A stretch of DNA of 64,000 bases from an uncultured delta proteobacterium (GTDB taxonomy: Bacteria > Desulfobacterota > Desulfomonilia > Desulfomonilales > Desulfomonilaceae): contig CAWBKB010000001.1 in the NCBI GenBank assembly GCA_963789265.1, forward strand, positions 576,001-640,000, given 5' to 3'. The translations under genes and the position numbers were made by a program. Of this stretch, positions 1 to 12,953 are shown one piece after another; position 1 is the stretch's first letter; each line of letters opens with the position of its first letter. Under the pieces are notes generated by a model, which worked only from the letters and a program-made list of their open reading frames with translations, did no database searches and had not been told where the DNA came from.

Positions 1-151
1 TAATGTTCCAATCTTTCGGCAGGAGGGCAGCCACAGTCAGGAGACCCAGCGGCGGGCTGTAAGCCTTTTTCGATGCCAATCGGATAACCCTATCTTCCTG
101 GCTTATGCTGAGATTTCGGGGACTTTTGGGGTACACTAATAGGATGTTCAT
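1..151 (-). CDS. B12-binding-domain radical SAM protein, N-terminal part (runs off window)
   Basis: Manual translation MNILLVYPKSPRN...YSPPLGLLTVAALLPKDWNI; the PPLGL(L)TVAALLP motif is typical of this family; G-rich RBS upstream. Confidence 0.75.
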   Translation of the reverse strand, partial: MNILLVYPKSPRNLSISQEDRVIRLASKKAYSPPLGLLTVAALLPKDWNI

Positions 152-228
152 AATATTTCCCCCCTGAAGGTATCCTGAGATCCCTATTCCTGTCAATCTG
201 CACGCCTTGGCCAATTGTCGGATGGTCA

Positions 229-291
229 AATCCCGGGACACCATACCTAATTGGGGCTACGATCCGCAAATCAAATAAAGTGTCCTCAGAT
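229..291. repeat. Short imperfect palindromic element, CCGGGACACCATACCTAATT class
   Basis: aatcccgggacaccatacctaatt...aaataaagtgtcctcagat; similar units at 9139-9201 and 9960-10024, and inverted at 2882-2904. Confidence 0.7.
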
Positions 292-470
292 CTCGCAGAT
301 ACAAGCTCTGGAGCTCTTTCTCACAACCATGTCCGAAAACGTCTTGCTTCAATAGCGAACTGCCATCAACATAGGACTAGAGCATTGAAATCAACGAGCC
401 GTAGTCTGAAACACGTGTGGGACAAGAATCGCGCGGGATTTCATGCATCCGCGTGCTGGAGGCTTTAGAC

Positions 471-1922
471 ATGATACTTGATAAACGAATCTGCGACAGG
501 GCGCGGTTGGCGAGAGACCCTCGGTTCGACGGCCTGTTTTTCGTAGGTGTTATGAGCACAGGTATTTATTGCCGGCCGATATGCCCGGCACGTTCGCCTA
601 AACCGGAGAACATTGTATACTTTGCTTCCGCGGCAGCAGCGGCTGAAGCCGGGTTGCGACCCTGTCTCCGATGCCGGCCCGAGGCGGCACCGGGCAGTCC
701 GGCCTGGAACGGCACGTCAGCCACGGTTTCCCGGGCCATGTTGCTGATACGTCAGGGTGCATTAAATGAAGGGAGCCTGGAGGACTTGGCCTCGAAACTT
801 GGTGTGGGCAGTCGTCACCTGCGTCGGTTGTTTCAAACCCATATCGGCGCTTCACCCAAAAGTCTGGCCACGACCCAAAAGATCCTTTTCGGAAAAAAGC
901 TGCTGAACGAAGCGGATCTGTCCGTCACCCAAATCGCTTTTGCATCAGGGTTCGGCAGCATTCGGCGATTCAATGCAGCGTTCGGCAAGATCTATGGCAC
1001 AACCCCGTCGGCAATTCGAAGGCGGAATATTAGCAACAAGACCTCCGGGGGAGGGCTTTTCCAATGCACGTTGACCTTATCTTACCGCCCGCCCTTTGCT
1101 TGGCAGCGCATGCTGGGATTTTTCGAGTTGCGGGCGATACCGGGTGTGGAATTCGTTGCAGAAGGTGCCTATCGTCGTACCATCAGAATCCACGAGACCA
1201 CCGGCATGATTTCTGTGGCCCACTCGGCAAAAGAAAACGCACTGCTGCTGACAGTGGCCCTGCCGGACAGCCGCGACCTGATGTCCACAGTTGAGAGGGT
1301 GCGGCGCATGTTTGACCTGGATGCTAATATCACAGCCATTCATGACGTCTTAGCCGCAGACCCCGTGCTTGAAAAGTTAGTGGCCAAACATCCCGGCCTC
1401 AGGTTGCCCGGCTCCTGGGATCCTTTTGAAACAGCCATACGGGGAGTTGTGGGCCAGCAGGTCTCAGTCAAGGGAGCCCGCACTATTCTCGGACGCATCG
1501 CTGCAAAAGCAGGGCCGAGCTTTGAATCCGCGGATAATCCGGAACTCACGCACTTGTTCCCAACCGCGCACGAGTTGAACACTTGCGATCTGCGAGGGAT
1601 CGGTATGCCCGGAACGCGGCTCCGGACCGTCAAAGCGCTGGCGGAAGAAGTGCATCGCGAAAGACTCTCTTTTGTGGTGAAAGGGTCCCTCTCGGAATTC
1701 ATTGAACAATTGACTCGGATTCCCGGTATAGGCGACTGGACGGCCCAATACATTGCCATGCGGGGAATGAGTGAACCCGACGCCTTTCCAGCCGGCGATC
1801 TGGGCATCGTCAAGGCGTTGCGGCAGGGCGACAAACGGATTACCCCGAAACAAATCTTGCAAAGAGCTGACAAATGGCGCCCGTGGCGTGCTTACGCGGC
1901 CATGTATCTGTGGCAGGGCTAA
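471..1922 (+). CDS. alkA: AdaA-AlkA fusion: Ada Zn-binding/AraC domain plus DNA-3-methyladenine glycosylase II
   Basis: GIYCRPIC...PCLRCRP Ada motif, AraC HTH (IAFASGFGSIRRFN), HhH motif PGIGDWTA and PWRAYA. Confidence 0.93.
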   Translation: MILDKRICDRARLARDPRFDGLFFVGVMSTGIYCRPICPARSPKPENIVYFASAAAAAEAGLRPCLRCRPEAAPGSPAWNGTSATVSRAMLLIRQGALNEGSLEDLASKLGVGSRHLRRLFQTHIGASPKSLATTQKILFGKKLLNEADLSVTQIAFASGFGSIRRFNAAFGKIYGTTPSAIRRRNISNKTSGGGLFQCTLTLSYRPPFAWQRMLGFFELRAIPGVEFVAEGAYRRTIRIHETTGMISVAHSAKENALLLTVALPDSRDLMSTVERVRRMFDLDANITAIHDVLAADPVLEKLVAKHPGLRLPGSWDPFETAIRGVVGQQVSVKGARTILGRIAAKAGPSFESADNPELTHLFPTAHELNTCDLRGIGMPGTRLRTVKALAEEVHRERLSFVVKGSLSEFIEQLTRIPGIGDWTAQYIAMRGMSEPDAFPAGDLGIVKALRQGDKRITPKQILQRADKWRPWRAYAAMYLWQG

Positions 1923-1941
1923 AAGGTAAACGTTCCGCGGG

Positions 1942-2128
1942 AAGAAGGATTCACCGCAGAGCACTCGGAGAACGCAGAGAGAATAGATGCTCATGATAAC
2001 AATGGTTGAGGTGCCTGGATGACTTTTTGGGGCGGAAATTGATTCTGAATGAAACAGGTTCATCCTGCCATGCATTTCTCGGCAGAATGAAGGAGAAGGA
2101 AATTTCTCTGCGATCTCTGCGGTGAATA
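1942..2128. repeat. Inverted repeat pair TTCACCGCAGAG...CTCTGCGGTGAA (dispersed REP-like family)
   Basis: Arms at ~1950 and ~2115; related arms at ~47328/47850 and ~38338/38475. Confidence 0.65.
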
Positions 2129-2151
2129 ACTATGCTAAAGGAGGCAGCATA

Positions 2152-2655
2152 ATGTTTTACGACTATTTTGAAACCGGTTTGATCGGGACTCTGACTCTTG
2201 TGGGAGACGAAGAGGGTCTGCGGCACATCCTTTTTCCAAAGGAGAAAAATCCCATCACGATCCGGGCCGATTGGAAAAAGAAGCACGGATTCTTTGCGCC
2301 GGTCAAAGCTCAATTGCGGGCCTATTTCAATGGTGAATTGAAACAATTCGATCTCGTGCTGGCTCCTGTGGGGACTCCGTTTCAGCTCAAAGTATGGCAG
2401 GCATTACGCACCATCCCCTACGGAGAGCTGGCCAGCTACAAATCCATTGCTGAAGCTATCGGCAACCCAAAAGCGGTCAGGGCCGTGGGCGCAGCCAACG
2501 GGCGAAACCCCATTCCCATCGTCGTGCCGTGCCACCGTTGTATCGGCAGCGACGGCTCTCTGGTTGGTTTCGGCGGCGGCCTGGACACCAAGAAGCGCCT
2601 CATTGATCTGGAACGGTCTAATGTTGGCGGGCCTTGTAGCCAGGTGGCGGAATAA
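2152..2655 (+). CDS. ogt: Methylated-DNA--protein-cysteine methyltransferase
   Basis: GTPFQLKVWQAL, RAVGAAN and active-site PCHR; RBS AAGGAGG before ATG 2152. Confidence 0.95.
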   Translation: MFYDYFETGLIGTLTLVGDEEGLRHILFPKEKNPITIRADWKKKHGFFAPVKAQLRAYFNGELKQFDLVLAPVGTPFQLKVWQALRTIPYGELASYKSIAEAIGNPKAVRAVGAANGRNPIPIVVPCHRCIGSDGSLVGFGGGLDTKKRLIDLERSNVGGPCSQVAE

Positions 2656-2699
2656 ACCACCGGGGGGCTGCGTGGATGTCAAATTTCAAGACCTGATCC

Positions 2700-2904
2700 G
2701 GCTACGTTTGACTCGGCGACGTTGAGCCATCAAATCAATATAGACGCCGTAGGTCTCATGACGAAAAAAGGCCGGTAGTCTGTGATTGCCGCGCTGTATA
2801 ACGTGATGAGGCATTCCCGGAGCGACCACTCGTGCTACTTGACCCATAACCGAATCTTGGAAAATCAGACCCGTTAGGCAACAATTAGGTATGGTGTACC
2901 CGGG
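2700..2904 (-). pseudogene. Truncated REP-associated tyrosine transposase (RAYT/Y1) 5' fragment with its terminus
   Basis: From ATG 2847: MGQVARVVAPGMPHHVIQRGNHRLPAFFRHETYGVYIDLM, matching the RAYT N-terminal HHVxQRGN pattern; terminus CCCGGGTACACCATACCTAATTG at 2904-2882. Confidence 0.8.
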
Positions 2905-3465
2905 ACTCTGCCTACCTGGAACTCAATGCTTTCAACCAAGGTTATAAGGGAGACATCGCTAATGAGGTTTAGAGAACAGACTCAACTCACCAATATCAAG
3001 CCTGGTATAAATCTTCAACATGCACAACTGTAAGTGTCGTCAGTGCACATACGTAGTTGACGTCGAGCAGCTACATCTGATAGACATTTGAGATGCACCC
3101 AAGGAAATGGGGTGGTAGGGCCATTTTTGCATAAGAGAAGTGACGGGCAACCGGAAACATTCCGATTGGCTGCTCTACGTTCAGTTAAGTATGCTCAGGC
3201 AGAGAATAAAATTGGCTTTTCGGCACCGTCGTGAGAATTTTGGATCTGACGACCAGGGGAGGAGATGGGCCCCCTTTTCGCGGTCAACGCGGCCACGTTT
3301 CGCCCAGTCTGCGGTTCAAGGAACATTGGATTCGCAAAACCGGCCTATAATTGTGAGTAATGATGAACCGCGATCTCCGGGGAGGGAAAATTCGGGGTAA
3401 TGCGACGGCCAATTAGACTCCAAAAACATAGGCGATAATTCACCTCGTTGAAGGAGGAGGCAAAA

Positions 3466-4035
3466 ATGAAGATTGCAAGCGTATTGGGCAGCCCCCGCCC
3501 GAAAAAGGGCAACACGGCAAAGGTTCTAGGGTGGGTCGAAGAACAACTAAGGGTGAATGGTCACTTCGTTGATCGTATCAACATAACAGACAAAAAGGTG
3601 AATGGCTGCAAAGAATGCTACACGTGTCAAGGTATTCCCGACGAGCCGGGCTGTCCCCAAGAGGATGACGCAAAGGAAATCTTTGAGCGACTAATCGCTT
3701 CCGACCTCATACTGTTGGCCTCGCCACTTTTTTGCTGGGGCTTCTCTTCGCAAATCAAGCCGTTAATAGACCGTTGTTTCTGTCTAGTTACAGGTTACGG
3801 AACTCCGAAATGGAAGTCGCTCCTTGAAGGAAAACGAGCTGGGCTTCTGGTAACGTGCGCGGGTCCTATCGAAGAAAACGCGGACCTCGTGGTGAAGATG
3901 TTCAACAGGCTGATGGAGTACACGAAATGCAGCGTCCCTGGAACCCTTGTAATACCGTTTGCGACCACACCTGATGCCATGGGCGAGGAAATCAAGGCGC
4001 AAGCCGTGAAATTTGCCCACAAGTTCAGGTCCTGA
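3466..4035 (+). CDS. Flavodoxin family / iron-sulfur flavoprotein (NADPH-dependent FMN reductase-like)
   Basis: LGSPRPKKGNT phosphate loop, CxxCxxC...C motif, ASPLF; strong RBS. Confidence 0.88.
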   Translation: MKIASVLGSPRPKKGNTAKVLGWVEEQLRVNGHFVDRINITDKKVNGCKECYTCQGIPDEPGCPQEDDAKEIFERLIASDLILLASPLFCWGFSSQIKPLIDRCFCLVTGYGTPKWKSLLEGKRAGLLVTCAGPIEENADLVVKMFNRLMEYTKCSVPGTLVIPFATTPDAMGEEIKAQAVKFAHKFRS

Positions 4036-4165
4036 AATGCCATTAAAGGTCGCACGGAAATTACAATATGCTTCAGTCAAATTCAGGTAACAACTGTCTG
4101 TGCGGATAAGCCATCATAGATTAGCGTCGATCTCAAATTTCAAGGCCTTTTAATGGGTGACCCCC
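4024..4165 (+). mobile_element. ~140-bp MITE, GGGGTCAG class, copy 1 (degenerate)
   Basis: Aligns along its length with 4984-5125; ends tcaggtcctgaaat / atttcaaggcc...tgacccc. Confidence 0.7.
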
Positions 4166-4184
4166 TGCTTTTTCTTTCTCATAA

Positions 4185-4853
4185 TTATTTCTTCTCTTTA
4201 AGTCGTTTGCGGCGAGCAAGTTCGGCATCAGTGGGAGTCTCAAGCGCGAACGATCCTGTCTTGACTTCGCCGGCGCGTGCGTACGAGGCAATGATCACTC
4301 CGGTAGGCGAAGTCTTGCTCTCAAGCAACTTGAATCCAACCGGAATTGTCCCTTCCGCGAATAAGCGCTTGCCCCTGCCCAGAGTAATGGGGAATATTTT
4401 CAGCCAAAGCTCATCGACCAGGTCATGCTTCAAAAGCGTTTGAATGAGATTGCCGCTGCCGTGAACTTGTATTTCGGGTCCGTCCTGCTCCTTAAGCTTT
4501 TTAACTTCCTTCGCGACATCTCCCTTGAGGAGTTCGGAATTTCTCCAGTCAAGCTTTTTCAGCGTCTTCGAAGCTACATATTTCTTTGCGTTATTAATTC
4601 CGGCTGCAAAGGGATCTTCATTGGTCTTCACATACGGCCAGTGGGCTGCGAATATCTCGTACGTCTCTCTTCCGAGCAATAAATGAAAAGGTTTACTCAT
4701 TTGCTCGACCATCACTTTGCCAATGAAGTCATCAAAGTAACCGGCAACCCAGCCGCCGTGCTTGAACCCCGCCGTGGGATCTTCTTCAGGCCCGCCCGGA
4801 GCCTGCATCACGCCGTCAAGGGTTATGAATGACAAAACAACAAGTTTTCTCAT
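4185..4853 (-). CDS. Dihydrofolate reductase family (RibD C-terminal-like) protein
   Basis: MRKLVVLSFITLDGVMQAPGG, LLGRETY, VHGSGNL, LVDEL, LGRGKRLF. Confidence 0.9.
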   Translation of the reverse strand: MRKLVVLSFITLDGVMQAPGGPEEDPTAGFKHGGWVAGYFDDFIGKVMVEQMSKPFHLLLGRETYEIFAAHWPYVKTNEDPFAAGINNAKKYVASKTLKKLDWRNSELLKGDVAKEVKKLKEQDGPEIQVHGSGNLIQTLLKHDLVDELWLKIFPITLGRGKRLFAEGTIPVGFKLLESKTSPTGVIIASYARAGEVKTGSFALETPTDAELARRKRLKEKK

Positions 4854-4983
4854 ATACTACCTCACTTTAAAACCCGACATCTGAGATGCGTCCTGCCCGC
4901 TGGAAGTTCCACCACTTTTATTCTTCCCACCTTAATTGATCTATTGCCTATATTTTCAAATGGCCGAAACCCCACATGATTTT

Positions 4984-5125
4984 GGGGTCAGATCTTGAAA
5001 TGCCAGTATAGGTCGCACAGAAATTTAAATATACTTCAGCCATATTCAAGTAACAACACTCTGTTCAGATAAGGCATCTGAGATTCGAATTAATGTCAAA
5101 TATTCAAGAATCAAGATCTGCCCCC
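4984..5125 (+). mobile_element. ~140-bp MITE, GGGGTCAG class, copy 2
   Basis: Terminal inverted repeats GGGGTCAGATCTTGA / TCAAGATCTGCCCC. Confidence 0.75.
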
Positions 5126-5370
5126 ATGCTTGTGCATTGGACTATAGACCTATCCGAAGACCGGCCCAAGAAATTGTGCTTGACTACAGGAACTATCGAG
5201 GGGTACTCTCGCAAAGGTCGAATAATAATCTCTTTTGACAATGTAAACCTCGTCGGGCTAGGTGGAGTGCGTCGCTTTCCGGGGGGCAAGGGAACCATTC
5301 TGTCTCCCTAAAGCAGTCCAAGAAACCCAAAATGCCAAGTCCATCGCATAATTAAGGGTCCAGTGTTGCA

Positions 5371-6327
5371 ATGGAAGTCCACGACATCCACGATTTTGTA
5401 GTATCATCCCAGCGGATGATAGAGGATGAATATGCACGAATCCAGAAACGAGCAACGGAAGACCCAGGAACTGCCGGGGACCAGGGGGAGGAGAACTGGG
5501 CCTCACTATTGAGGCTTTGGCTGCCTTCATATTTTCATATAGTGACAAAGGGACGGATATTGACTGAGTCGGGCTATGCTAGTCCCCAAGTCGATCTGAT
5601 AGTATTGATGCCATCGTACCCCAAAATTCTACAAGATAAAAAGCTGTATCTTGCCGGAGGTGTTGCGGCAGCATTTGAGTGCAAGACAACCCTGAAAGCA
5701 GATCACATCAGAGCGGCTTTGAAAACTAGCTCAGCACTTAGGCAAAATATTCCAAGACGCCAAGGAAGCCCATACAAGGAATTGAATTCAACCACCATTT
5801 ATGGGTTGCTCGCTCACTCGCACTCTTGGAAAGGTTCGAAATCCACACCAGTCGAGAACATAACTGGGACTCTTCTGGAATCTGATCTTGAATTCGTGCA
5901 CCATCCGGTCGAGTGTCTTGATTTCATCTGTGTGGCCGACCTTGCCACTTGGTCAGTAATGAAACACACCTATATTGGTCCAAGCATCGACCCCAGTTAT
6001 TCAGACGAGATGGTCACCAAGTACGGCAAAGAAGGGAGTGCCCAGTCCGTATATATGTGCGGTGCAATTCAAGGGGATAGGCAAGAGGCTTTCTTGTCGC
6101 CACTCGGTGCTTTGCTTTCCGGTCTATACACTAAACTGGCATGGACGTTCCCCGACATGCGAAATTTGGAGGAATACTTCCGAAAGGTGAACCTCCGAGG
6201 AAGCGGTGAAGGCAGGGCACGTATCTGGGACTTGTCAATTTATTCCGACAAGGTCAGACAGCGGGTCTGCAATGGGATGCTGGCCGGCGGAAATCTCTTC
6301 GATGAGTGGGCCATATTTTTTTTCTAG
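5371..6327 (+). CDS. NucC-like / DUF6602 PD-(D/E)xK nuclease-fold protein
   Basis: DPGTAGDQGEENW..LL..WLP...SPQVDLIV...AAFECKTT resembles the NucC motif series. Confidence 0.7.
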   Translation: MEVHDIHDFVVSSQRMIEDEYARIQKRATEDPGTAGDQGEENWASLLRLWLPSYFHIVTKGRILTESGYASPQVDLIVLMPSYPKILQDKKLYLAGGVAAAFECKTTLKADHIRAALKTSSALRQNIPRRQGSPYKELNSTTIYGLLAHSHSWKGSKSTPVENITGTLLESDLEFVHHPVECLDFICVADLATWSVMKHTYIGPSIDPSYSDEMVTKYGKEGSAQSVYMCGAIQGDRQEAFLSPLGALLSGLYTKLAWTFPDMRNLEEYFRKVNLRGSGEGRARIWDLSIYSDKVRQRVCNGMLAGGNLFDEWAIFFF

Positions 6328-6418
6328 AGCGCCTTACCATCCGTCACCCCGGATGGCGAAGCCATATTACGAATGCCCGAAAAGAGAAAGGGGAAAGGGT
6401 TGGAAAGGGGTCAGGAAA

Positions 6419-6503
6419 GGGGTCAGATCTATTCTTGACTCATTTTCGAACCGCTTCACAGCGAGCGACTCGCACAATATGAGTCAAGAGTAGACGTGAC
6501 CCC
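6419..6503. mobile_element. 85-bp palindromic MITE, GGGGTCAG class
   Basis: GGGGTCAGATCTATTCTTGACTCA ... TGAGTCAAGAGTAGACGTGACCCC, ~24-bp imperfect inverted repeat. Confidence 0.75.
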
Positions 6504-6513
6504 TTGCACAAAC

Positions 6514-6695
6514 TTTTGTGGTAACATGAGTTCATGTCAAGAACCGCACGAGCTTCTGTCGGTGAGGTCTACTACCACGTGTTGAACTGCGGCAATGCGC
6601 GCCAAGAGGTCTTTCATCAGGGATTCGCGCTTCGGCCTCGCGGACGGCCAAGAACGGACCCGAAAAAGTGGCATGTCCACTTTTCCCCCAGGTGA
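6514..6695 (+). pseudogene. Internally deleted mini-RAYT, copy 1
   Basis: ATG 6534 reads MSRTARASVGEVYYHVLNCGNARQEVFH joined to ALRPRGRPRT (RAYT N-terminus fused to RAYT-type C-terminus); followed by GCATGTCCACTTTT end. Confidence 0.8.
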
Positions 6696-6961
6696 AACCG
6701 GACGGCTCAAATAAGGCATCGGAGTTCGCGAGGATGTCAAATTCCGAGACCTGGCCACCTGCTTGCTGGGCTACGTCCCGTGATGGGGATAGCCCGGGAC
6801 CAAAATGCTCGATAGAGAAGCCATAGGGGGATGCTATTTAAGGGCAGCCCACAAGTCAACAACAAATCAGTGTTGTGTTCCGGGAATTCGCCCAGCTTTT
6901 CATATGACTTGTCTCTCATCAGTATCCCGCTAAAATCAGTGATGAGGAATGGAGGCGACAC

Positions 6962-8230
6962 GTGCTGCGATCAGACATTTCAGATTGGGTTGTGCATTTT
7001 GTTCATAGGAGAAATCCTGACAATTTGATTTACGATAATGGTGGTGAGATAATCTCATTGCCAATCGCGTATGCGAAGGGAAAAGCTATTTTCGCAGGAG
7101 ATTGGGATTATGACGATAAGGATTACGGAATTGAAGACGACGCGTATGCATTCGCAGTTCTCCTCAAAATTCTCGATGATGGACATATCCGAGCCAATTG
7201 GTCGTATCGGAATGGCAAACCTACCATTTATGGGCCACGAGCCGCTGTGTGTTTCACTGAAATGCCTCTCTATGCTCTTATGGATTATGCCCAGTGGAGA
7301 GATAATGAATACGCGGTTGATTTCTACGGGGTAGCGGTTCTTAGAGATGAACTCTTTAGGTTTGGAGGACGTCCAGCAATTTACGGGTTATCTTCATCTC
7401 ACAAAGAGGCAACAGAAGGAGATCCTTATTACCGTTACGGTGGCCGGACATTGGCATACGAGTGTGGCATTGCTCCACACGAACAGTACAGATATGTATC
7501 GACTCGTCTCGGATGTTCATCACGAATTGATTGGACTCACGAACGAGAATGGCGTTGGACAAAAGATTTCAAGAATGATTTGTTTGATATTCCTGGATTA
7601 CCATTATGGTTAGCAGATGGCGGAGTGCAATTTAGCTCGATACTGATAATCGTTTCCAATTCGGAAGAAGTATCGATGTTTCTGGATAAAATGAAGGAAT
7701 ACCACGACAGCGGATCCAATAACTATGACCTCCAATTCAACCGGGATATTTTGAGAAATACGCGGGTGATTTCATTAGAAGAGATTTCTGATGCGCGTAA
7801 GAAAAAGGCAGATCTTCGAGTAGACGATTTGCCTTTCCATTCTTTGCCAAGAATTTCTCCAAGAAAACCCTCAACTCAGATGCTTGATCGAGTAAGGACC
7901 GCAATGTCCGAGGCTCAGAAAAAAGCAGAGGAGGCAGCGAAAGACTTTATCGCAAAATTACCCAGAGACGAACAAGGTAGATTAATGCAGGTGTACTTCG
8001 GATTTGCCACGGTGGTTACTTACGAATCGCACACTGAATGTACAGAAGCATTACTCCAACTTGGTTATGCTAAACCGATCGGAGGACTTGGCTACCTCAT
8101 CTATGTGGCTACAGAAGGAGTTTCGAGTGAAGGACAATTGAATGTAGCCGAAGCGGGCGCTTATGAGGCCGCAAGAATTCTTACTGATCGTTTAGGACAG
8201 CCTTTTTTCGTGACGTCTCGACTAGACTGA
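6962..8230 (+). CDS. DUF4427 / AbiGi-like protein, putative ADP-ribosyltransferase-like fold
   Basis: DISDWVVHF, TIYGPRAAVCFTEMPL, GGRPAIYG, IDWTHEREWR; GGAGG RBS before GTG; visibly AT-richer than flanks. Confidence 0.65.
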   Translation: MLRSDISDWVVHFVHRRNPDNLIYDNGGEIISLPIAYAKGKAIFAGDWDYDDKDYGIEDDAYAFAVLLKILDDGHIRANWSYRNGKPTIYGPRAAVCFTEMPLYALMDYAQWRDNEYAVDFYGVAVLRDELFRFGGRPAIYGLSSSHKEATEGDPYYRYGGRTLAYECGIAPHEQYRYVSTRLGCSSRIDWTHEREWRWTKDFKNDLFDIPGLPLWLADGGVQFSSILIIVSNSEEVSMFLDKMKEYHDSGSNNYDLQFNRDILRNTRVISLEEISDARKKKADLRVDDLPFHSLPRISPRKPSTQMLDRVRTAMSEAQKKAEEAAKDFIAKLPRDEQGRLMQVYFGFATVVTYESHTECTEALLQLGYAKPIGGLGYLIYVATEGVSSEGQLNVAEAGAYEAARILTDRLGQPFFVTSRLD

Positions 8231-8256
8231 TTGATCCTCGCGTAACGCAACACAAG

Positions 8257-8423
8257 AAAAAGGGACATTCCTCTTTTCTGTTGCTCTGACAGGCTATTGT
8301 AGTAACACGAATTTACGCCGGGGACCGCACGAGCTTCAGTCAGTGAGGTCTATTACCACGTGTTGAACCGAGGCAATGCTCGCCGCGAGGTCTTTCATCA
8401 GGCATTCGCGCTTCGGCCTCTGA
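8257..8423 (+). pseudogene. Internally deleted mini-RAYT, copy 2
   Basis: AAAAGGGACATTCC terminus, then PGTARASVSEVYYHVLNRGNARREVFHQAFALRP; same deletion junction as copy 1. Confidence 0.8.
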
Positions 8424-8425
8424 AT

Positions 8426-8902
8426 TCATGACCTTTCTTCAAACTCGTAAAGCTTCTCCACAGCGAACTCAAGATATTTCGCGCATTTCTCCTTCCAAAT
8501 TCCGGAAACAAGAAATTTCTGGTACTGGCCGGGTTTGGAAAAATCCATTCCAATAAGGTCCAAGCAGTTGATGTGGCCAAAGGTGTCTCTGAAGTTCTTG
8601 ACCAACTTAGCGGCGTGAAGACGTATGATAGCTCGCGACTCTTTCGCCTTTTCCTTATCCGCAAGGGAACACCGATGCCTCAGCGCAAGGGACACGGAGG
8701 ACGCGGACACTGCACCACACGGCGCTTGCTGCTGTCCACTTATGCCGCCCATGAAGGGGATGCAGGTCCAGAGAAAATCTTCGTTTTCCAGGCCATAAGT
8801 CTCCCACATAACTTGCAGGACTGCCGGCCCTCAATGATAGCCCGTTGTCATGAGTTCCGTAACACGGGCCTTTGCTTGATCGAGAGATATCTTTGTCGGC
8901 AT
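8426..8902 (-). CDS. C-GCAxxG-C-C family protein, probable selenoprotein (UGA at codon 24)
   Basis: GGAGGT RBS and ATG 8902; MPTK...TTGYH-UGA-GPAVLQVM continues in frame into the MGGISG...PCGAV...INCLDL...KCAKY ORF; hairpin follows UGA. Confidence 0.85.
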
Positions 8903-9099
8903 AGTCTACCTCCCTGGGTATTCTGGGGACACAATACCATTCTTGACGCGGAGAATTTCCGCAGCCTTCCAGGCTTTTCCTGCGCCCGGAGACAGGTATA
9001 TATTCTTTGCCTCATTTATTGCACACTGCGTAAATGGCTTTCCGATTGCCACAACGTTTCCGCCTGTCAGGAGACCGGGTCAGTTTGAAAGCTGTTCAC

Positions 9100-9201
9100 C
9101 AGATTACTCTTTTGCCTCCTGCCGGGCAATGCCCTTTGAAATCCGGGGACAACATGTAATATCGGCCACGATCCGCGAGTTAAGTAAGGTGTACCCGGAT
9201 C
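9100..9201 (+). repeat. ~100-bp degenerate direct repeat ending in a CCGGGGACA-class palindrome
   Basis: gcaatgccctttgaaatccggggaca...atccgcgagttaagtaaggtgtacccggat aligns with 9920-10024. Confidence 0.7.
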
Positions 9202-9226
9202 TACATTCTTGACTGAATCCTATGTT

Positions 9227-9709
9227 TCATGTGGCATTGTGCTCCACTTGTGCTTTGAAAAGTCGCAGCGCTTTGTGCATATATCCGCGCCACAGTACAT
9301 TTGTGATGAACCAAAGAATCGGCACAGCAAAAGCAGACCTTGGATTAAACGCGTAACGCCATTTGATATGCGTTTTAGTCGATGAAGTACTGCTAAACCA
9401 CCATTCACCGTTTGCTGAGGTCACGAGAAACCGAAGCGCACCCGTAAACTCGCTGACAGTGTAGCTGAAGTAATCAGGATGCTCGTACTGTGTTAACATT
9501 TCTTGCGCGGAACTGCCATCGGACAAAAGAACGGTTCGTGTCTGACCTGATCCGTCCCACGCACCGGTTTGGTCTTTAGTTCCGGTGACAGCGGGTAGCG
9601 GCCCGTATCCCGTAAATATTGACGTAAGATCAATGGGTACATTACGCTCAAAAGCCGCGATTTGATTAACCGCCACATCTGTATTTACTGTTACTGCAAG
9701 TGATCTCAA
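9227..9709 (-). CDS. SRPBCC (polyketide cyclase-like) family protein
   Basis: GYGPLPAV, W...GQTRTV.LSDG, W.YAF.P; GGAGG RBS before TTG 9709. Confidence 0.78.
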   Translation of the reverse strand: MRSLAVTVNTDVAVNQIAAFERNVPIDLTSIFTGYGPLPAVTGTKDQTGAWDGSGQTRTVLLSDGSSAQEMLTQYEHPDYFSYTVSEFTGALRFLVTSANGEWWFSSTSSTKTHIKWRYAFNPRSAFAVPILWFITNVLWRGYMHKALRLFKAQVEHNAT

Positions 9710-9919
9710 GGTTATCCTCCTTTTTGACCTACTGAAAATAGTCCACCGTTTCGTCCCCGGCCGAATTGGAGGTTCGCTCCAGGTGCGAACATTGGATGCA
9801 GGGTTGCACGGGGTCAGGCCCATTTTCTTTGCTCGACCTTTTCCACTTTTCCTCAACGCCGGCCGGATCGCATACCTTGCGCGGTCGGAATGAGACCAGA
9901 TCAGCTTTAAGGCCATTCA

Positions 9920-10024
9920 CTGAATACCTTTTTTGCGCTCTGATGCGCAATGCTTTTTGAAATCCCGGGACACAACACGGAATTGGGGCTATAATCCGCG
10001 AATTAAGTAAAATGTCTCCAGATC
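9920..10024 (+). repeat. Second copy of the ~100-bp direct repeat
   Basis: gcaatgctttttgaaatcccgggaca...atccgcgaattaagtaaaatgtctccagat. Confidence 0.7.
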
Positions 10025-10220
10025 CTCAAATAAACCGCCGAAGTTCCGCGTGGATGTCAAATTTGAAGCCCTGACCTCTGATTTTGCTGAAATGAGGAAA
10101 TACCTAAAATCTTGACAAATTCATCCGATAACTCCTAATATGATTTTGCCCGAAAAATTCCCATCTGTTTTGACTCAACGGCGTGTCCAAGGGGGCGGAC
10201 ACAGCCTGTTAAAAGAGCAT

Positions 10221-11375
10221 ATGATGGAACTCATGTCGCTTCCCATATTCAAACATGTCCTGGAAGTTATTCACACTGCCAACCATTGTGCGGATTGCGG
10301 CCTGATCCGAAAACAAATCCTGGAAGCCTTTTTCAAAGGCTTTGAAAACAATGGGGCTATCTTTTTCTGGCCGGATACCGCAGGCATGTTTTCGAATACC
10401 ATCATCAGCGGCGACCTTGATGAAGCCTTCAATCAACTTTTTCATAAGTATTACCATGAATTTGATCCACTGCATCTGATGGAAAAGCCGCCAAGTCGAG
10501 CACTGGTGGGAACCATGCCGCAACGCATCAGCTATGACTTCATGCTTTCCACCGAGTATTACAATGATTTTTTAAAACCCCAAAAGATACACTACAAATT
10601 GGTGGTGTCCCTGGACTCCATGGAGGGTACGCTGGGGAAAATCGTCCTCACCCGACCTGTGAGTTCCATTCCCTTTTCAGCAACAGACATTCAGACGGCC
10701 TGGACCGTTTCCCCATATTTGGCCCATGCCCTTTCGCTCAATGACCTTCGCCAAAAAATCAGCTTGTATGCCAACATTCTCAATTTTATCGAGAAGGATT
10801 TGTCCACCGGTGTCATGCTGGTGGATAAGTGCATGCACGTTGTTTATATTAATCCGCAAGCCGCTGAGTTGTGCCGCAAATTCTCAGGGTTTGCCCGCGG
10901 CAGGAATGACCGGCCCATTCCTCGGCTTTTGCTGGAAACCGTTAAGAAAATAATCATGGAAATAGAACACGTCTCTACGGGAGCTGAGATCATACCCAAA
11001 CGAAACATAATTATCGGCCACAATGGGGTGAAATTCTCGATCCACGCAAAATTCGTGCGCAACGGGTCCATTCCCGGATATGGCGGCTATTACATGATTT
11101 ATCTCTCTGAATTGGAAAGCAGCCTATCCTTGGAAGGGGGTGACATCCGCCGGATGTTCCAATTGACTCCAAGGGAGATCGACGTCACGAGGCAAATCTT
11201 CAATGGGTCAAGGAATCTGGAAATTGCGGAAAAATTGTTCGTTTCCGAGATCACCGTGAAAAAGCATATTCAAAATATTTACCGCAAGGTCGGGGTGAAA
11301 AACCGAACATCCCTGATGAACAAGATCATGGCTGTCGGCAAAATGCCCCGTCAACACCTCAACCCCGCAGATTGA
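10221..11375 (+). CDS. LuxR-family HTH transcriptional regulator with PAS-like central domain
   Basis: LTPREIDV...GSRNLEIAEKLFVSEITVKKHIQNIYRKVGVKNRT; GVMLVD..VVYIN. Confidence 0.88.
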   Translation: MMELMSLPIFKHVLEVIHTANHCADCGLIRKQILEAFFKGFENNGAIFFWPDTAGMFSNTIISGDLDEAFNQLFHKYYHEFDPLHLMEKPPSRALVGTMPQRISYDFMLSTEYYNDFLKPQKIHYKLVVSLDSMEGTLGKIVLTRPVSSIPFSATDIQTAWTVSPYLAHALSLNDLRQKISLYANILNFIEKDLSTGVMLVDKCMHVVYINPQAAELCRKFSGFARGRNDRPIPRLLLETVKKIIMEIEHVSTGAEIIPKRNIIIGHNGVKFSIHAKFVRNGSIPGYGGYYMIYLSELESSLSLEGGDIRRMFQLTPREIDVTRQIFNGSRNLEIAEKLFVSEITVKKHIQNIYRKVGVKNRTSLMNKIMAVGKMPRQHLNPAD

Positions 11376-11747
11376 TTCGGCTTTCCCGAATCAGACGTTG
11401 TCTGCCGGCAGGTCGAGTCCCTATTCGGCGGCGCTTCGCACTGAACGGCATTCATCAAGGGGCATGAATCGGATGAGTTGGCGGCCAGTTACCGCACGAT
11501 TCATTGAGGCTTCGTGTTTATCACCGGCGGAGCGGTGCATTTCGCTCGTTCGGCGAAATCCGTGAAATGACGTAATCGGCTTCAAAATTCCTACTTTCGT
11601 ATAGTATACATTAGTAATCAGGTCAAATATGTTCATTTATCCGGCATACAATAACGGCTATCGTCGCGCGCCTTGAACTCGACGAAAATAGCCCATTTCC
11701 GAGTGGAAACCAACTGACTGCTCGTAGGCGACAGAAAGGAGAAGACC

Positions 11748-12953
11748 ATGAAAATCAAATGGTGGCTTGGAATTACTGTCATGCTGCTCGTGATCGCGAG
11801 CATTGCAGGCACGGCCATGGCTAAAGACAAAATCGTCATTGGGCAGGCGATTTCTCTGTCCGGTCCTATGGCAAGCGGCGTGGCCATAGCTGGAGGACCC
11901 GTCTATGAACTGTGGGTTGACCAGGTCAATAAAAACGGCGGCATCTTCGTCAAAAAATATGGGAAAAAGCTGCCGATTAAACTGATCCGTTATGATGACA
12001 AGAGCGATATCGGCACCATGACGCATTTGCTGGAAAAATTGATCGTTGAGGACAAGGTCGACTTCATCCTGCCCCCCTGGAGCACCGCCATGCTTTATGC
12101 CGCTGCGCCCATCGCCAATAAGTATCATTACATTCTAATCGGAGGGCCCGGTGGTGCCGCCAAACTCAAAGAGCTCGATCTCCCCTATTTTTTTCAAGTC
12201 CTAAACTTCGCTGAAACCCAGAACCCGACACTGGCAAAGATTTACAAAGAAGTTGGGGTTAAATCGGTGGCCATCCTCTACCGCGGCGACCTTCATGGCA
12301 TCGAGTACGGCAAGTCATTCCCGCCATTGCTGAAGAAGATGGGCATCGAAGTCAAAATGTGCAAGAGCTACCCGCCGGATATTAAAGACATGTCGAGCCT
12401 GCTCAGAGAGGCTCAATCGCTTAAGGTGGATGCCTTATATGCAGCGTCTTATCCGCCGGAAGCCATGTTGCTCACCAAGCAGGCGATGGAACTGGGCATC
12501 AATTTTAAATCCCTATTCATGACCGTACTGCCGTTTTCACCCAACCTTTTCCGCGATACCTTTGGTGTTAAAGCCGTTGAAGGTGTCATGGGCGGTGGTG
12601 CCTGGAATGCAAAAACTTCGCCCGGGGCAAAGGAACTGGTGAAGATATATAAGGCCAAATTTGGGGTCGAACCCGACTACTGGGGAGCCTTGTTTTACTA
12701 CTCTTCCCTGCAGGATCTCCAACAGGCCATCGAAAAAGCCGGTACGCTCGACCAGAAGAAAATTCGGGATATCATGGCCAAAGATAAGTTTCAAACCGCG
12801 CTGGGCACCTTCTCGTACGACAAGCACCGCTACTTCGTGAATCATCCCGGTGAAATCGGCCAGTGGCAGCACGGTGTCTTTGAAGTCATCGATCCGGGCG
12901 CCAAGCGCACGGCGCCGCCCGAATATCCCAAGCCGGATTGGCCCAAAAAATAA
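11748..12953 (+). CDS. Liv-type ABC transporter substrate-binding protein
   Basis: Signal peptide, IGQAISLSGP, VNKNGGI, YDDKSD, IGQWQ. Confidence 0.9.
   Translation: MKIKWWLGITVMLLVIASIAGTAMAKDKIVIGQAISLSGPMASGVAIAGGPVYELWVDQVNKNGGIFVKKYGKKLPIKLIRYDDKSDIGTMTHLLEKLIVEDKVDFILPPWSTAMLYAAAPIANKYHYILIGGPGGAAKLKELDLPYFFQVLNFAETQNPTLAKIYKEVGVKSVAILYRGDLHGIEYGKSFPPLLKKMGIEVKMCKSYPPDIKDMSSLLREAQSLKVDALYAASYPPEAMLLTKQAMELGINFKSLFMTVLPFSPNLFRDTFGVKAVEGVMGGGAWNAKTSPGAKELVKIYKAKFGVEPDYWGALFYYSSLQDLQQAIEKAGTLDQKKIRDIMAKDKFQTALGTFSYDKHRYFVNHPGEIGQWQHGVFEVIDPGAKRTAPPEYPKPDWPKK

Follow-up and report, generated by a model that had tools for sequence, protein, structure and literature searches.

Decayed tyrosine-transposase repeats among the unrelated genes of a 10-kb stretch in an uncultured Desulfomonilaceae genome

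The first 10 kb of a 64,000-nt stretch of DNA from an uncultured delta proteobacterium of the family Desulfomonilaceae (hereafter the window; contig CAWBKB010000001.1 of assembly GCA_963789265.1, positions 576,001 to 640,000) carry a string of unrelated single genes punctuated by short repeats. The question raised by this arrangement is whether the repeats are the working ends of a gene-capture platform, as a sequence-only reading of the locus had proposed, or the remains of transposons lying between the genes. Our results favour the second answer: the region from ~2.6 to 10.1 kb of the window is probably a strain-specific patch of accessory genes, a repeat-laden plasticity zone of decayed Y1-transposon debris with no dedicated capture machine. 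The debris that makes up this zone is of known kinds, and genes are gained and lost there. The patch is bounded by the ada-alkA/ogt genes on one side and by a LuxR-type regulator on the other.

Five repeat families were counted along the 6.06 Mb of this genome (contigs C1, C4, C6, C7, and C8 are named below) with nhmmer and blastn: A and H, both MITEs (miniature inverted-repeat transposable elements); B, a dimer of a repetitive extragenic palindromic (REP) sequence; and R and R2, both stubs of Y1 transposase genes. Each of the nine gaps free of open reading frames (ORFs) between positions 245 and 10,139 holds elements of Y1 (HUH) tyrosine transposases, which are non-autonomous, eroded for the most part, and belong to three lineages. 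The first consists of MITEs of the TIRtron type, named after their terminal inverted repeats (TIRs), with termini starting GGGGTCAG/A, and includes A (two complete copies and three right ends) and H (one copy). The second is R, an internally deleted gene of a ~220-aa transposase between small hairpins, present in two copies, and the third groups R2 and B, that is, the 47-codon stub of a second ~220-aa transposase with a REP-like repeat, together with REP dimers. Element copies are 62-87% identical to one another. The motifs had been interpreted as ends or remnants of Y1 elements, and this was borne out by the termini that H shares with intact transposase genes and by longer relatives of the stubs carrying the PF01797 domain.

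The ~50-bp motif that had drawn attention to the locus corresponds to the right end of element A, a MITE of ~135 bp with inverted termini of 18-25 nt (GGGGTCAGGTCTTGAAAT...ATTTCAAGACCTGACCCC). Four copies of the motif make up repeat family D2 (2651-2696, 4105-4150, 6709-6754, and 10029-10074), and the fifth, at ~5068, lies within a 114-nt repeat pair (4025-4138 and 4988-5101, D4). The five same-orientation copies listed in the sequence-only reading (2651, 4105, 5068, 6709, and 10029) were all recovered, all five on the + strand and far beyond chance: the 21-mer core GATGTCAAATTTCAAGACCTG produced four matches with up to three mismatches, every one in the + orientation, whereas the expectation derived from 100 shuffles was 0.00. 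Two copies of A are complete, one at 4023..4167 (+, nhmmer E 4.9e-36), whose left terminus is devoid of the first GGGG, and the other at 4981..5129 (+, nhmmer E 4.4e-38), with termini TGGGGTCAGATCTTGA / TCAAGATCTGCCCCCA forming inverted pair I16. The remaining three are solo right ends, located at 2651..2699 (+, from repeat and motif searches and blastn), at 6689..6761 (+, nhmmer), where the end is linked to R, an arrangement shared by two further copies in the genome, and at 10026..10078 (+, from the motif, nhmmer, and the match to a congener, G001, whose homology resumes at 10087). The solo ends do not fold into hairpins (z +0.2 to +0.8). As had been pointed out, the stop codon of ogt (2653-2655) falls within an A end and that of the flavoprotein gene (4033-4035) within the left terminus of a complete A.

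Genome-wide, A was found in ~11 places, five of them in this 10 kb, and it was not found in the 40 genomes of relatives searched for it. An A-like terminus was detected 35 nt upstream of a gene of the Y1_Tnp+Bac_DnaA_C type, on its 5' side only, in a metagenome-assembled genome (MAG) of Thermodesulfobacteriota (L035). In addition, the 25-nt A terminus ATGTCAAATTTCAAGACCTGACCCC (window 2675-2699) recurs with 0-5 mismatches in other MAGs (loci L021-L053) labelled as Elusimicrobia, Nitrospirae, Spirochaetes, Vicinamibacteria, Ignavibacteria, Nitrospinae, Omnitrophica, and others, at least 10 phyla altogether, and 19 of 33 such loci contain it as an inverted pair, about 50-210 nt across. Judged from these sequences, the conservation across phyla is unusually strong for a transposon end.

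The single copy of H in the patch (6411..6507; nhmmer E 1.5e-30) is a near-perfect 97-nt hairpin (DNA fold z -7.4), and the family is present at ~30 places in the genome (nhmmer/blastn). Its termini (GGGGTCAG/A..TCT...CTTGACTCAT) are those found around two intact genes at C4:127.7-128.9k and C1:91.6-92.7k, which are ~99% identical (about 2 residues differ) and encode proteins with Y1_Tnp (7.5e-13) and Bac_DnaA_C domains according to Pfam. Both H and B occur in congeners too.

Element R is a ~235-nt remnant in which, of a ~220-aa PF01797 protein, the N-terminal 29 codons and the LRPRGRPR tail at the C-terminus are left, with small hairpins at both ends (z about -2). Six copies exist in the genome, two of them in this 10 kb: one at 6509..6741 (+, from nhmmer and alignment to longer relatives; ORF 6534-6695), in which the left hairpin was replaced by H, and a second at 8256..8420 (+, from repeats, nhmmer, and fold), consisting of the left hairpin AAAAAGGGACATTCCTCTTTT (8256-8278) and a body (8290-8420) that is truncated at model position 131. 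When the 53-codon ORF of R, considered as a possible conserved mini-protein, was compared by eye among the six copies, one was seen to have no start codon and another an early stop. The R2 unit (2716..2911, -, nhmmer E 5e-66), with 12 nhmmer hits in the genome, includes an N-terminal stub of 47 codons (ORF 2686-2847) preceded by a B-type REP (2882-2903). The three remnants of REP-associated tyrosine transposase (RAYT) genes that had been suspected at 2686-2847 (-), 6534-6695 (+), and ~8315-8420 (+) are real. The stubs gave no match in Pfam and NCBIfam because they are too short, and a sequence search of PDB with two of them returned one chance hit (E 1.7) for one and nothing for the other; their identity came from longer relatives, with 15 hits of ~220-aa PF01797 proteins for the R stub and 17 relatives of ~220 aa, 16 of them with PF01797, for the R2 stub, in agreement with the alignment.

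Element B is made of a dimer of the REP-like CCCGGGACACCATACCTAATTG and flanking sequence, in which no conserved GTAG tag was seen. It gave 20 nhmmer hits in the genome, seven of them of full length, and three of these seven lie in this 10 kb: at 162..294 (+, E 3.6e-28, family D3), with its REP-dimer core containing CCCGGGACACCATACCTAATTG at 228-292 and kept in G001; at 9071..9203 (+, E 2.4e-25, D3 and D5), as a direct 133-nt repeat upstream of the SRPBCC gene that is 70% identical to the next copy; and at 9892..10026 (+, E 7.1e-28). A shorter B-type REP fragment was located at 6863..6889 (-, inverted pair I2). With these elements identified, the two further terminus classes of the sequence-only reading fared differently. 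The first, CCGGGACACCATACCTAATT, is a genuine repeat, with two matches within three mismatches (233 + and 2883 -; 0.01 expected) and three diverged copies (9137, 9960, and 6863). The second, AAAAGGGACATTCC, was found once in the window (8258) and is not significant by itself, because 0.66 matches are expected by chance, although it is the left hairpin of R, lying in a small hairpin just upstream of five of the six genomic R copies.

Regarding the enzymes, blastn and nhmmer revealed only fragments of the A, B, R, and R2 lineages in the genome, and not one intact gene. PF01797 gave seven matches in the genome, none of them in this region nor at any R, R2, or B site. Intact transposases with the same ends exist for the H lineage alone, in the form of the two genes described above.

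The five families co-localise in about six loci of the genome, and nhmmer detected no member of them in the window past 10,078, in agreement with the earlier remark that no motifs are seen past 10.1 kb. The motifs are strongly clustered and not evenly spread, as the share of A copies in this 10 kb illustrates. A de novo survey, in which an ORF-free gap was scored if its DNA was present in at least two other places of the genome, showed that repeats are common in this genome as a whole: it detected multi-copy DNA in 1148 of 3675 gaps (31%) versus all nine here, and only 12 of 3601 ten-gap windows, in four loci, had nine repeat-bearing gaps. Therefore, this locus is an outlier, though not unique, being one of four hotspots; the other three are C8:1-15k, C7:100-121k, and C1:743-768k. 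A replication effect was considered as the cause of the common orientation. GC skew assigns C1:0-1.98 Mb to a single replichore, and every A and R copy of C1 is on the + strand; however, so are two B copies past the skew switch. Since the + orientation is shared with A and R copies lying 235 kb off on this replichore, it is no property of the array.

Local hopping was considered as the source of the flanking pairs and rejected for A, as the flanking copies are not mutual closest relatives; for B it is conceivable. Other repeat clusters of the genome carry similar small accessory genes (FMN_red, C_GCAxxG_C_C, SnoaL, SMR, and a contact-dependent inhibition (CDI) toxin/immunity pair); in one of them (L018:2700-4063, C7:229.7-231.1k), two ORFs, one with a restriction-endonuclease-like CDI-toxin domain and the other with a CdiI immunity domain, are immediate neighbours of an A MITE, of a stub of R2, and of a fragment of B. 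Another place (L010:8448-10058, C1:346.4-348.1k) holds an insertion sequence of 1.6 kb, with a gene for a UPF0236-like protein of 506 aa, and this element is evidently active because its seven copies are 100% identical.

Comparison with six congeners showed that the patch is absent or different in relatives in a block-wise manner. In the closest one, G001, the left flank is matched as far as 1999, and the match to the right flank begins at 10087, 9 nt past the last A end, the two flanks being on different contigs and in unrelated neighbourhoods. The ada-alkA and ogt genes behave as a discrete module of 2.3 kb (308-2618) that recurs, its ends unchanged, in at least three further contexts (G003/G006, G005, and G004); in G003 and G006, this module sits between genes that in our genome are found on C7 (C7:123.5-124.1k), where the pair is absent. 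Comparison of the 3' ends with four congeners revealed that ogt (2122..2655, +, Pfam) has a tail of 12 codons, extending into the A end, in place of its last three native codons. The flavoprotein module (3075/3231-4030), with the FMN_red gene, is 92-93% identical to the copies of G004, G005, and G006, located elsewhere and without motifs, whereas the neighbouring ada-ogt module shows 83-87% identity to the same congeners, which suggests a recent exchange of the former within the genus. At its junction, the native end of FMN_red (...TTCATGTGA) is replaced by ...TTCAGGTCCTGA, with the loss of one or two native codons, and the A terminus is without its GGGG. A diverged paralogue (84%) of FMN_red is present at C1:1,131,877-1,132,754. 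From 4030 to 10087, no match other than repeats was found in the six congeners.

Further evidence came from contigs assembled from metagenomic runs X2 and X3, which belong to two studies and correspond to another organism, placed at 90% likeness. A contig of 2572 nt from X3, of a relative at 90-95% likeness, showed joints at 2642 (then 46 nt)>6516, 6684>6844, 6883>8422, and 8932 (then 14 nt)>9967. Therefore, this organism has a shorter array, ogt-R-REP-C_GCAxxG-B, without three blocks of the window: that from the A end through H with three genes, that of ORF422 (the gene of a 422-aa protein) and an R copy, and that of B and the SRPBCC gene. The joint 6883>8422 has a 6-bp GAATTC overlap, which is contained in the B-type fragment at 6863..6889, and the joint 8932>9967, in the GGGACAC REP core, was seen also in run X2 from the second study. 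Two other joints (2695>6479 and 4164>6473) were left unused, with 21 letters on one side and a possible origin in other repeat loci.

Homology breaks and block indels with respect to relatives, scored without regard to direction (insertion here or deletion there), fall at or within about 30 nt of motifs. This coincidence, predicted in the sequence-only reading, was confirmed as such, but the position within the element varies, and the coincidence is close to automatic because the repeats hug the ORF ends. The genes, in turn, do not carry the repeats elsewhere. The 80 metagenomic loci with RibD_C relatives, whose best segments show 62-94% aa identity (five matches are partial), are homologous to the window in DNA sequence over 4175-4867 alone, and all of them are devoid of A, B, R, R2, H, and A-type termini. 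They have in common a ~470-bp upstream neighbour that is missing in the window. In run X3, the sequence of a related RibD_C contig departs from that of the window at 4969, on that side of the MITE where the gene lies. Likewise, motifs were present at neither of the two loci with SRPBCC homologues, found among 400 other genomes sampled from the phylum, nor at any of the four FMN_red loci.

The genes located between these repeats had been described as repair, detoxification, and defence-like functions, a description that fits Ada-AlkA, Ogt, FMN_red, RibD_C, the DUF6602/NucC-like protein, C_GCAxxG_C_C, and SRPBCC, to which one unassigned protein of 422 aa has to be added. The ada-alkA fusion (417..1922, +; Pfam Ada_Zn_binding, HTH_18, and AlkA_N) and ogt are followed by the FMN_red flavoprotein gene (3448..4035, +, Pfam), the RibD_C reductase gene (4185..4853, -, Pfam), which lies between two directly oriented A MITEs, and a gene for a DUF6602 protein (5371..6327, +, Pfam), a defence-like PD-(D/E)xK nuclease similar to NucC (PADLOC PD_DExK 1.7e-19; NucC effector 1.3e-15). 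The next gene, ORF422 (6962..8230, +), had no hit in Pfam, PADLOC, or NCBIfam; its language-model look-alikes (Atlas) are clusters of hypothetical proteins of ~430-450 aa, with DUF4427 in 13-15% of the members, and a weaker lead to AbiGi-type clusters scored 0.89, under the 0.9 reliability line of the tool. Further on, there are a C_GCAxxG_C_C redox gene (8426..8902, -, Pfam) and an SRPBCC (Polyketide_cyc2-like) gene (9227..9709, -, Pfam), the latter found in only 2 of the 400 other genomes of the phylum. In total, three of the eight genes are on the - strand, and the GC content across 4-8.5 kb is 42-52%, compared with 52.5% for the genome.

The C_GCAxxG_C_C gene has an in-frame TGA at codon 24, and it is unbroken if this TGA codes for selenocysteine, the Pfam match then covering profile positions 1-117 of 118. 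Codon 24 falls in the first three positions of the family profile, presumably where the first conserved Cys of the family is expected. The genome encodes selB above the cut-off (386 versus 242 bits), and a check for a selenocysteine insertion sequence (SECIS) showed a hairpin starting directly after the TGA of the candidate selenoprotein, which is not significant (z -0.8). In addition, a separate MITE with 24-nt inverted arms of the TTCACCGCAGAG type lies between ada-alkA and ogt (1949..2127, inverted pair I4); G003 and G006 have it, G004 and G005 do not, and its family, with many hits to 1926-1989, numbers dozens of copies in the genus; a joint in run X2 (1980>2102) coincides with it. A search of Rfam with positions 1-12000 of the window (E <= 0.1) gave no matches, and no tRNA genes that could serve as island anchors were found in positions 1-30000.

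From these data, we infer that Y1-type elements would tend to land beside the 3' ends of ORFs and within each other, as is known for REP and TIR repeats, and that their insertions would survive where they are tolerated, that is, in dispensable DNA, and then decay. The intervening genes would be acquired or rearranged one piece at a time, with the repeats marking the joints and probably promoting them in a passive way, through recombination between copies or microhomology near hairpin-forming DNA, and with no dedicated enzyme involved.

Several observations weigh against this interpretation as a zone of debris. Single genes lie between two direct copies of one rare element oftener than scattered insertion suggests: A-RibD_C-A and B-SRPBCC-B in the window and B-MerR-like-B at C6:170.6-171.7k, so that four of the seven full B copies form two bracketing pairs. 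The B pair around the SRPBCC gene has a common stretch of 66 nt that is not in other B copies and that, from its sequence, looks like a duplication made on the arrival of the gene. The RibD_C gene is here a bare ORF, cut from the two-gene context that is kept in the metagenomic loci. Moreover, as A was not found in relatives and its local copies are mutually diverged, these copies seem to have been brought in with foreign DNA and not by transposition within the genome. Finally, the two near-identical intact transposase genes of the H type may be active, and their cross-action on the related A termini is conceivable.

One alternative is that proposed in the sequence-only reading, in which Y1/HUH transposases acting in trans would recognise the termini and capture or shuffle single-gene units, in the manner of an integron. 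The Y1-transposase origin and the clustering of the termini, the two intact Y1_Tnp+DnaA_C genes with termini related to those of A, the common direction of the five A copies, and the proximity of indel ends to motifs all agree with it. However, the lineages A, B, R, and R2 have no intact enzyme, and the junctions are heterogeneous in position, with genes and elements both truncated or with the 6-bp microhomology used. Among the five A sites, three are reduced to a single, non-folding end, gene orientation is mixed (three of eight on the - strand), the genes are without motif elsewhere (0/80, 0/2, and 0/4 loci), the + orientation is found also in A and R copies at a distance of 235 kb on the same replichore, and a literature search gave no paper reporting a cassette role for such elements. 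We therefore consider this explanation very improbable, and the claim that the termini delimit units moved in trans by HUH chemistry was not upheld. The import of the whole patch as one fragment from a repeat-rich donor, with the repeats as a donor background without any local role, is unlikely as well. It would account for the lack of A in the 40 relatives searched, for the almost identical 25-nt A terminus in MAGs of at least 10 labelled phyla, for the GC content of 42-52% (4-8.5 kb) versus 52.5%, and for the patchy SRPBCC gene (2/400 genomes), but not for the FMN_red identity to congeners (92-93%, above the 83-87% of ada-ogt), which points to an origin within the genus, nor for the related contig that keeps the skeleton without three separate blocks, which points to piecemeal assembly; B and H are, besides, also present in congeners.

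A third possibility, plausible although we hold it to be a minority one, is that the repeats act as portable homology: a circle or an imported fragment carrying a gene and a repeat would recombine with a resident copy, and RecA or microhomology would stack single genes between direct repeats, from which they could loop out again, in an integrase-free cassette array that can be likened to the translocatable units of IS26. The three direct-repeat brackets (around RibD_C, SRPBCC, and MerR-like genes) speak for it, as do the absence of the B and SRPBCC block in contigs of two studies with the joint inside the REP core, the lack of ORF422 and an R copy as one block, and the like small accessory genes in other repeat clusters of the genome. 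On the other hand, the A copies flanking RibD_C are neither hybrids nor sisters (74% identical to each other and 81-83% to the copy 235 kb off), the joint 8932>9967 is not between the two full B copies, and relatives of the genes are found elsewhere without such a repeat; moreover, no circular form was seen among the assembled contigs. In its boldest form, worn Y1 termini used as portable homology would build integrase-free cassette arrays in which ORFs are trimmed to within ~30 nt of the stop and are stacked and lost at the repeats, with several arrays of this genome sharing a pool of small redox, detoxification, and defence genes, and the intact Y1_Tnp+DnaA_C proteins might nick GGGGTCA-type ends; this scenario we regard as doubtful.

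Under the preferred interpretation, that of debris, the locus offers a clear case of tyrosine-transposase remains building up in dispensable DNA, and as such debris can mimic a cassette array, it calls for caution in annotation. If the repeats do serve as joints for a gene-by-gene turnover, an integrase-free route to cassette-like gene stacking would be added in environmental bacteria.

Among the known systems, integron cassette arrays and integrase-less attC clusters (CALINs) are similar in appearance, with a string of unrelated and mostly promoter-poor single genes, a repeat close after each of them, and a variable locus. They differ in that the repeats here are explained as transposon termini with conserved sequence rather than as attC sites, which are imperfect palindromes with R''/L''-L'/R' cores behind each cassette, with several families intermixed, in that three of eight genes lie on the opposite strand, and in that the repeats do not travel with the genes. 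The best match to the IntI integrase model TIGR02249 in the whole genome scored 82.4 bits, versus a cut-off of 265, and a scan of the ORFs between -12 kb and +23 kb showed no recombinase family. Elements of the IS200/IS605 family have a Y1 HUH transposase and subterminal hairpins with no true terminal inverted repeats; R resembles them by its hairpins at both ends, but it is a deletion derivative without the catalytic core, and A and H do have true terminal inverted repeats.

REPIN-RAYT systems, reportedly described by Bertels and Rainey in 2011, are similar in having palindromic doublets that are non-autonomous, originate from the sequences flanking a Y1 transposase gene, and occupy intergenic positions adjoining 3' ends. 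Classical REPINs (Bertels et al. 2017, PMC5581495) occur in tens to hundreds of copies in a genome, dispersed over the chromosome, are inherited vertically, and accompany one intact RAYT, whereas 6-30 copies clustered in accessory DNA and broken cognate genes are found here. No intact RAYT flanked by genome-populating REPs was found in this genome, only the R and R2 stubs, and the copy number is not high and dispersed as in REPINs (B 20, R 6, and R2 12 hits in about 6 loci). Composite units flanked by MITEs, such as the Tn402-like integron between two 439-bp MITE copies reported for Acinetobacter in the consulted part of PMC3934969, or those of IS26, also have genes between two copies of a small element, here non-autonomous (A-RibD_C-A and B-SRPBCC-B). 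However, the bracketing copies are only 70-74% identical and the same bracketed unit was not found elsewhere (0/80 RibD_C loci with A); no target-site duplication is visible at the outer ends of A-RibD_C-A or B-SRPBCC-B.

Finally, the comparison with TIRtrons is the one on which the first lineage of the patch was named. TIRtrons contain TIR-flanked tyrosine transposases (TIRYT) and, according to the sections consulted of Di Nocera et al. 2013 (PMC3733652), their termini share GGGGWSAS and also form stand-alone repeat families, in dimers or clusters, of moderate abundance; in the same sections, REP-type repeats are placed within 20 bp of ORF 3' ends, to which they donate stop codons. The elements described here differ in that the intact genes encode a C-terminal Bac_DnaA_C helix-turn-helix domain, which is not mentioned in those sections, and in that A has no autonomous copy in this genome while its terminus is near-identical across many phyla. 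In the other respects, the likeness is close: GGGGWSAS agrees with the inverted termini of A (GGGGTCAG) and of H (GGGGTCAG/GGGGTCAA/G), the H termini flank two intact Y1 genes in this genome, as an A-like terminus does in the MAG L035 on the 5' side only, and here too the termini make up stand-alone repeat families, in ~11 places for A and ~30 for H.

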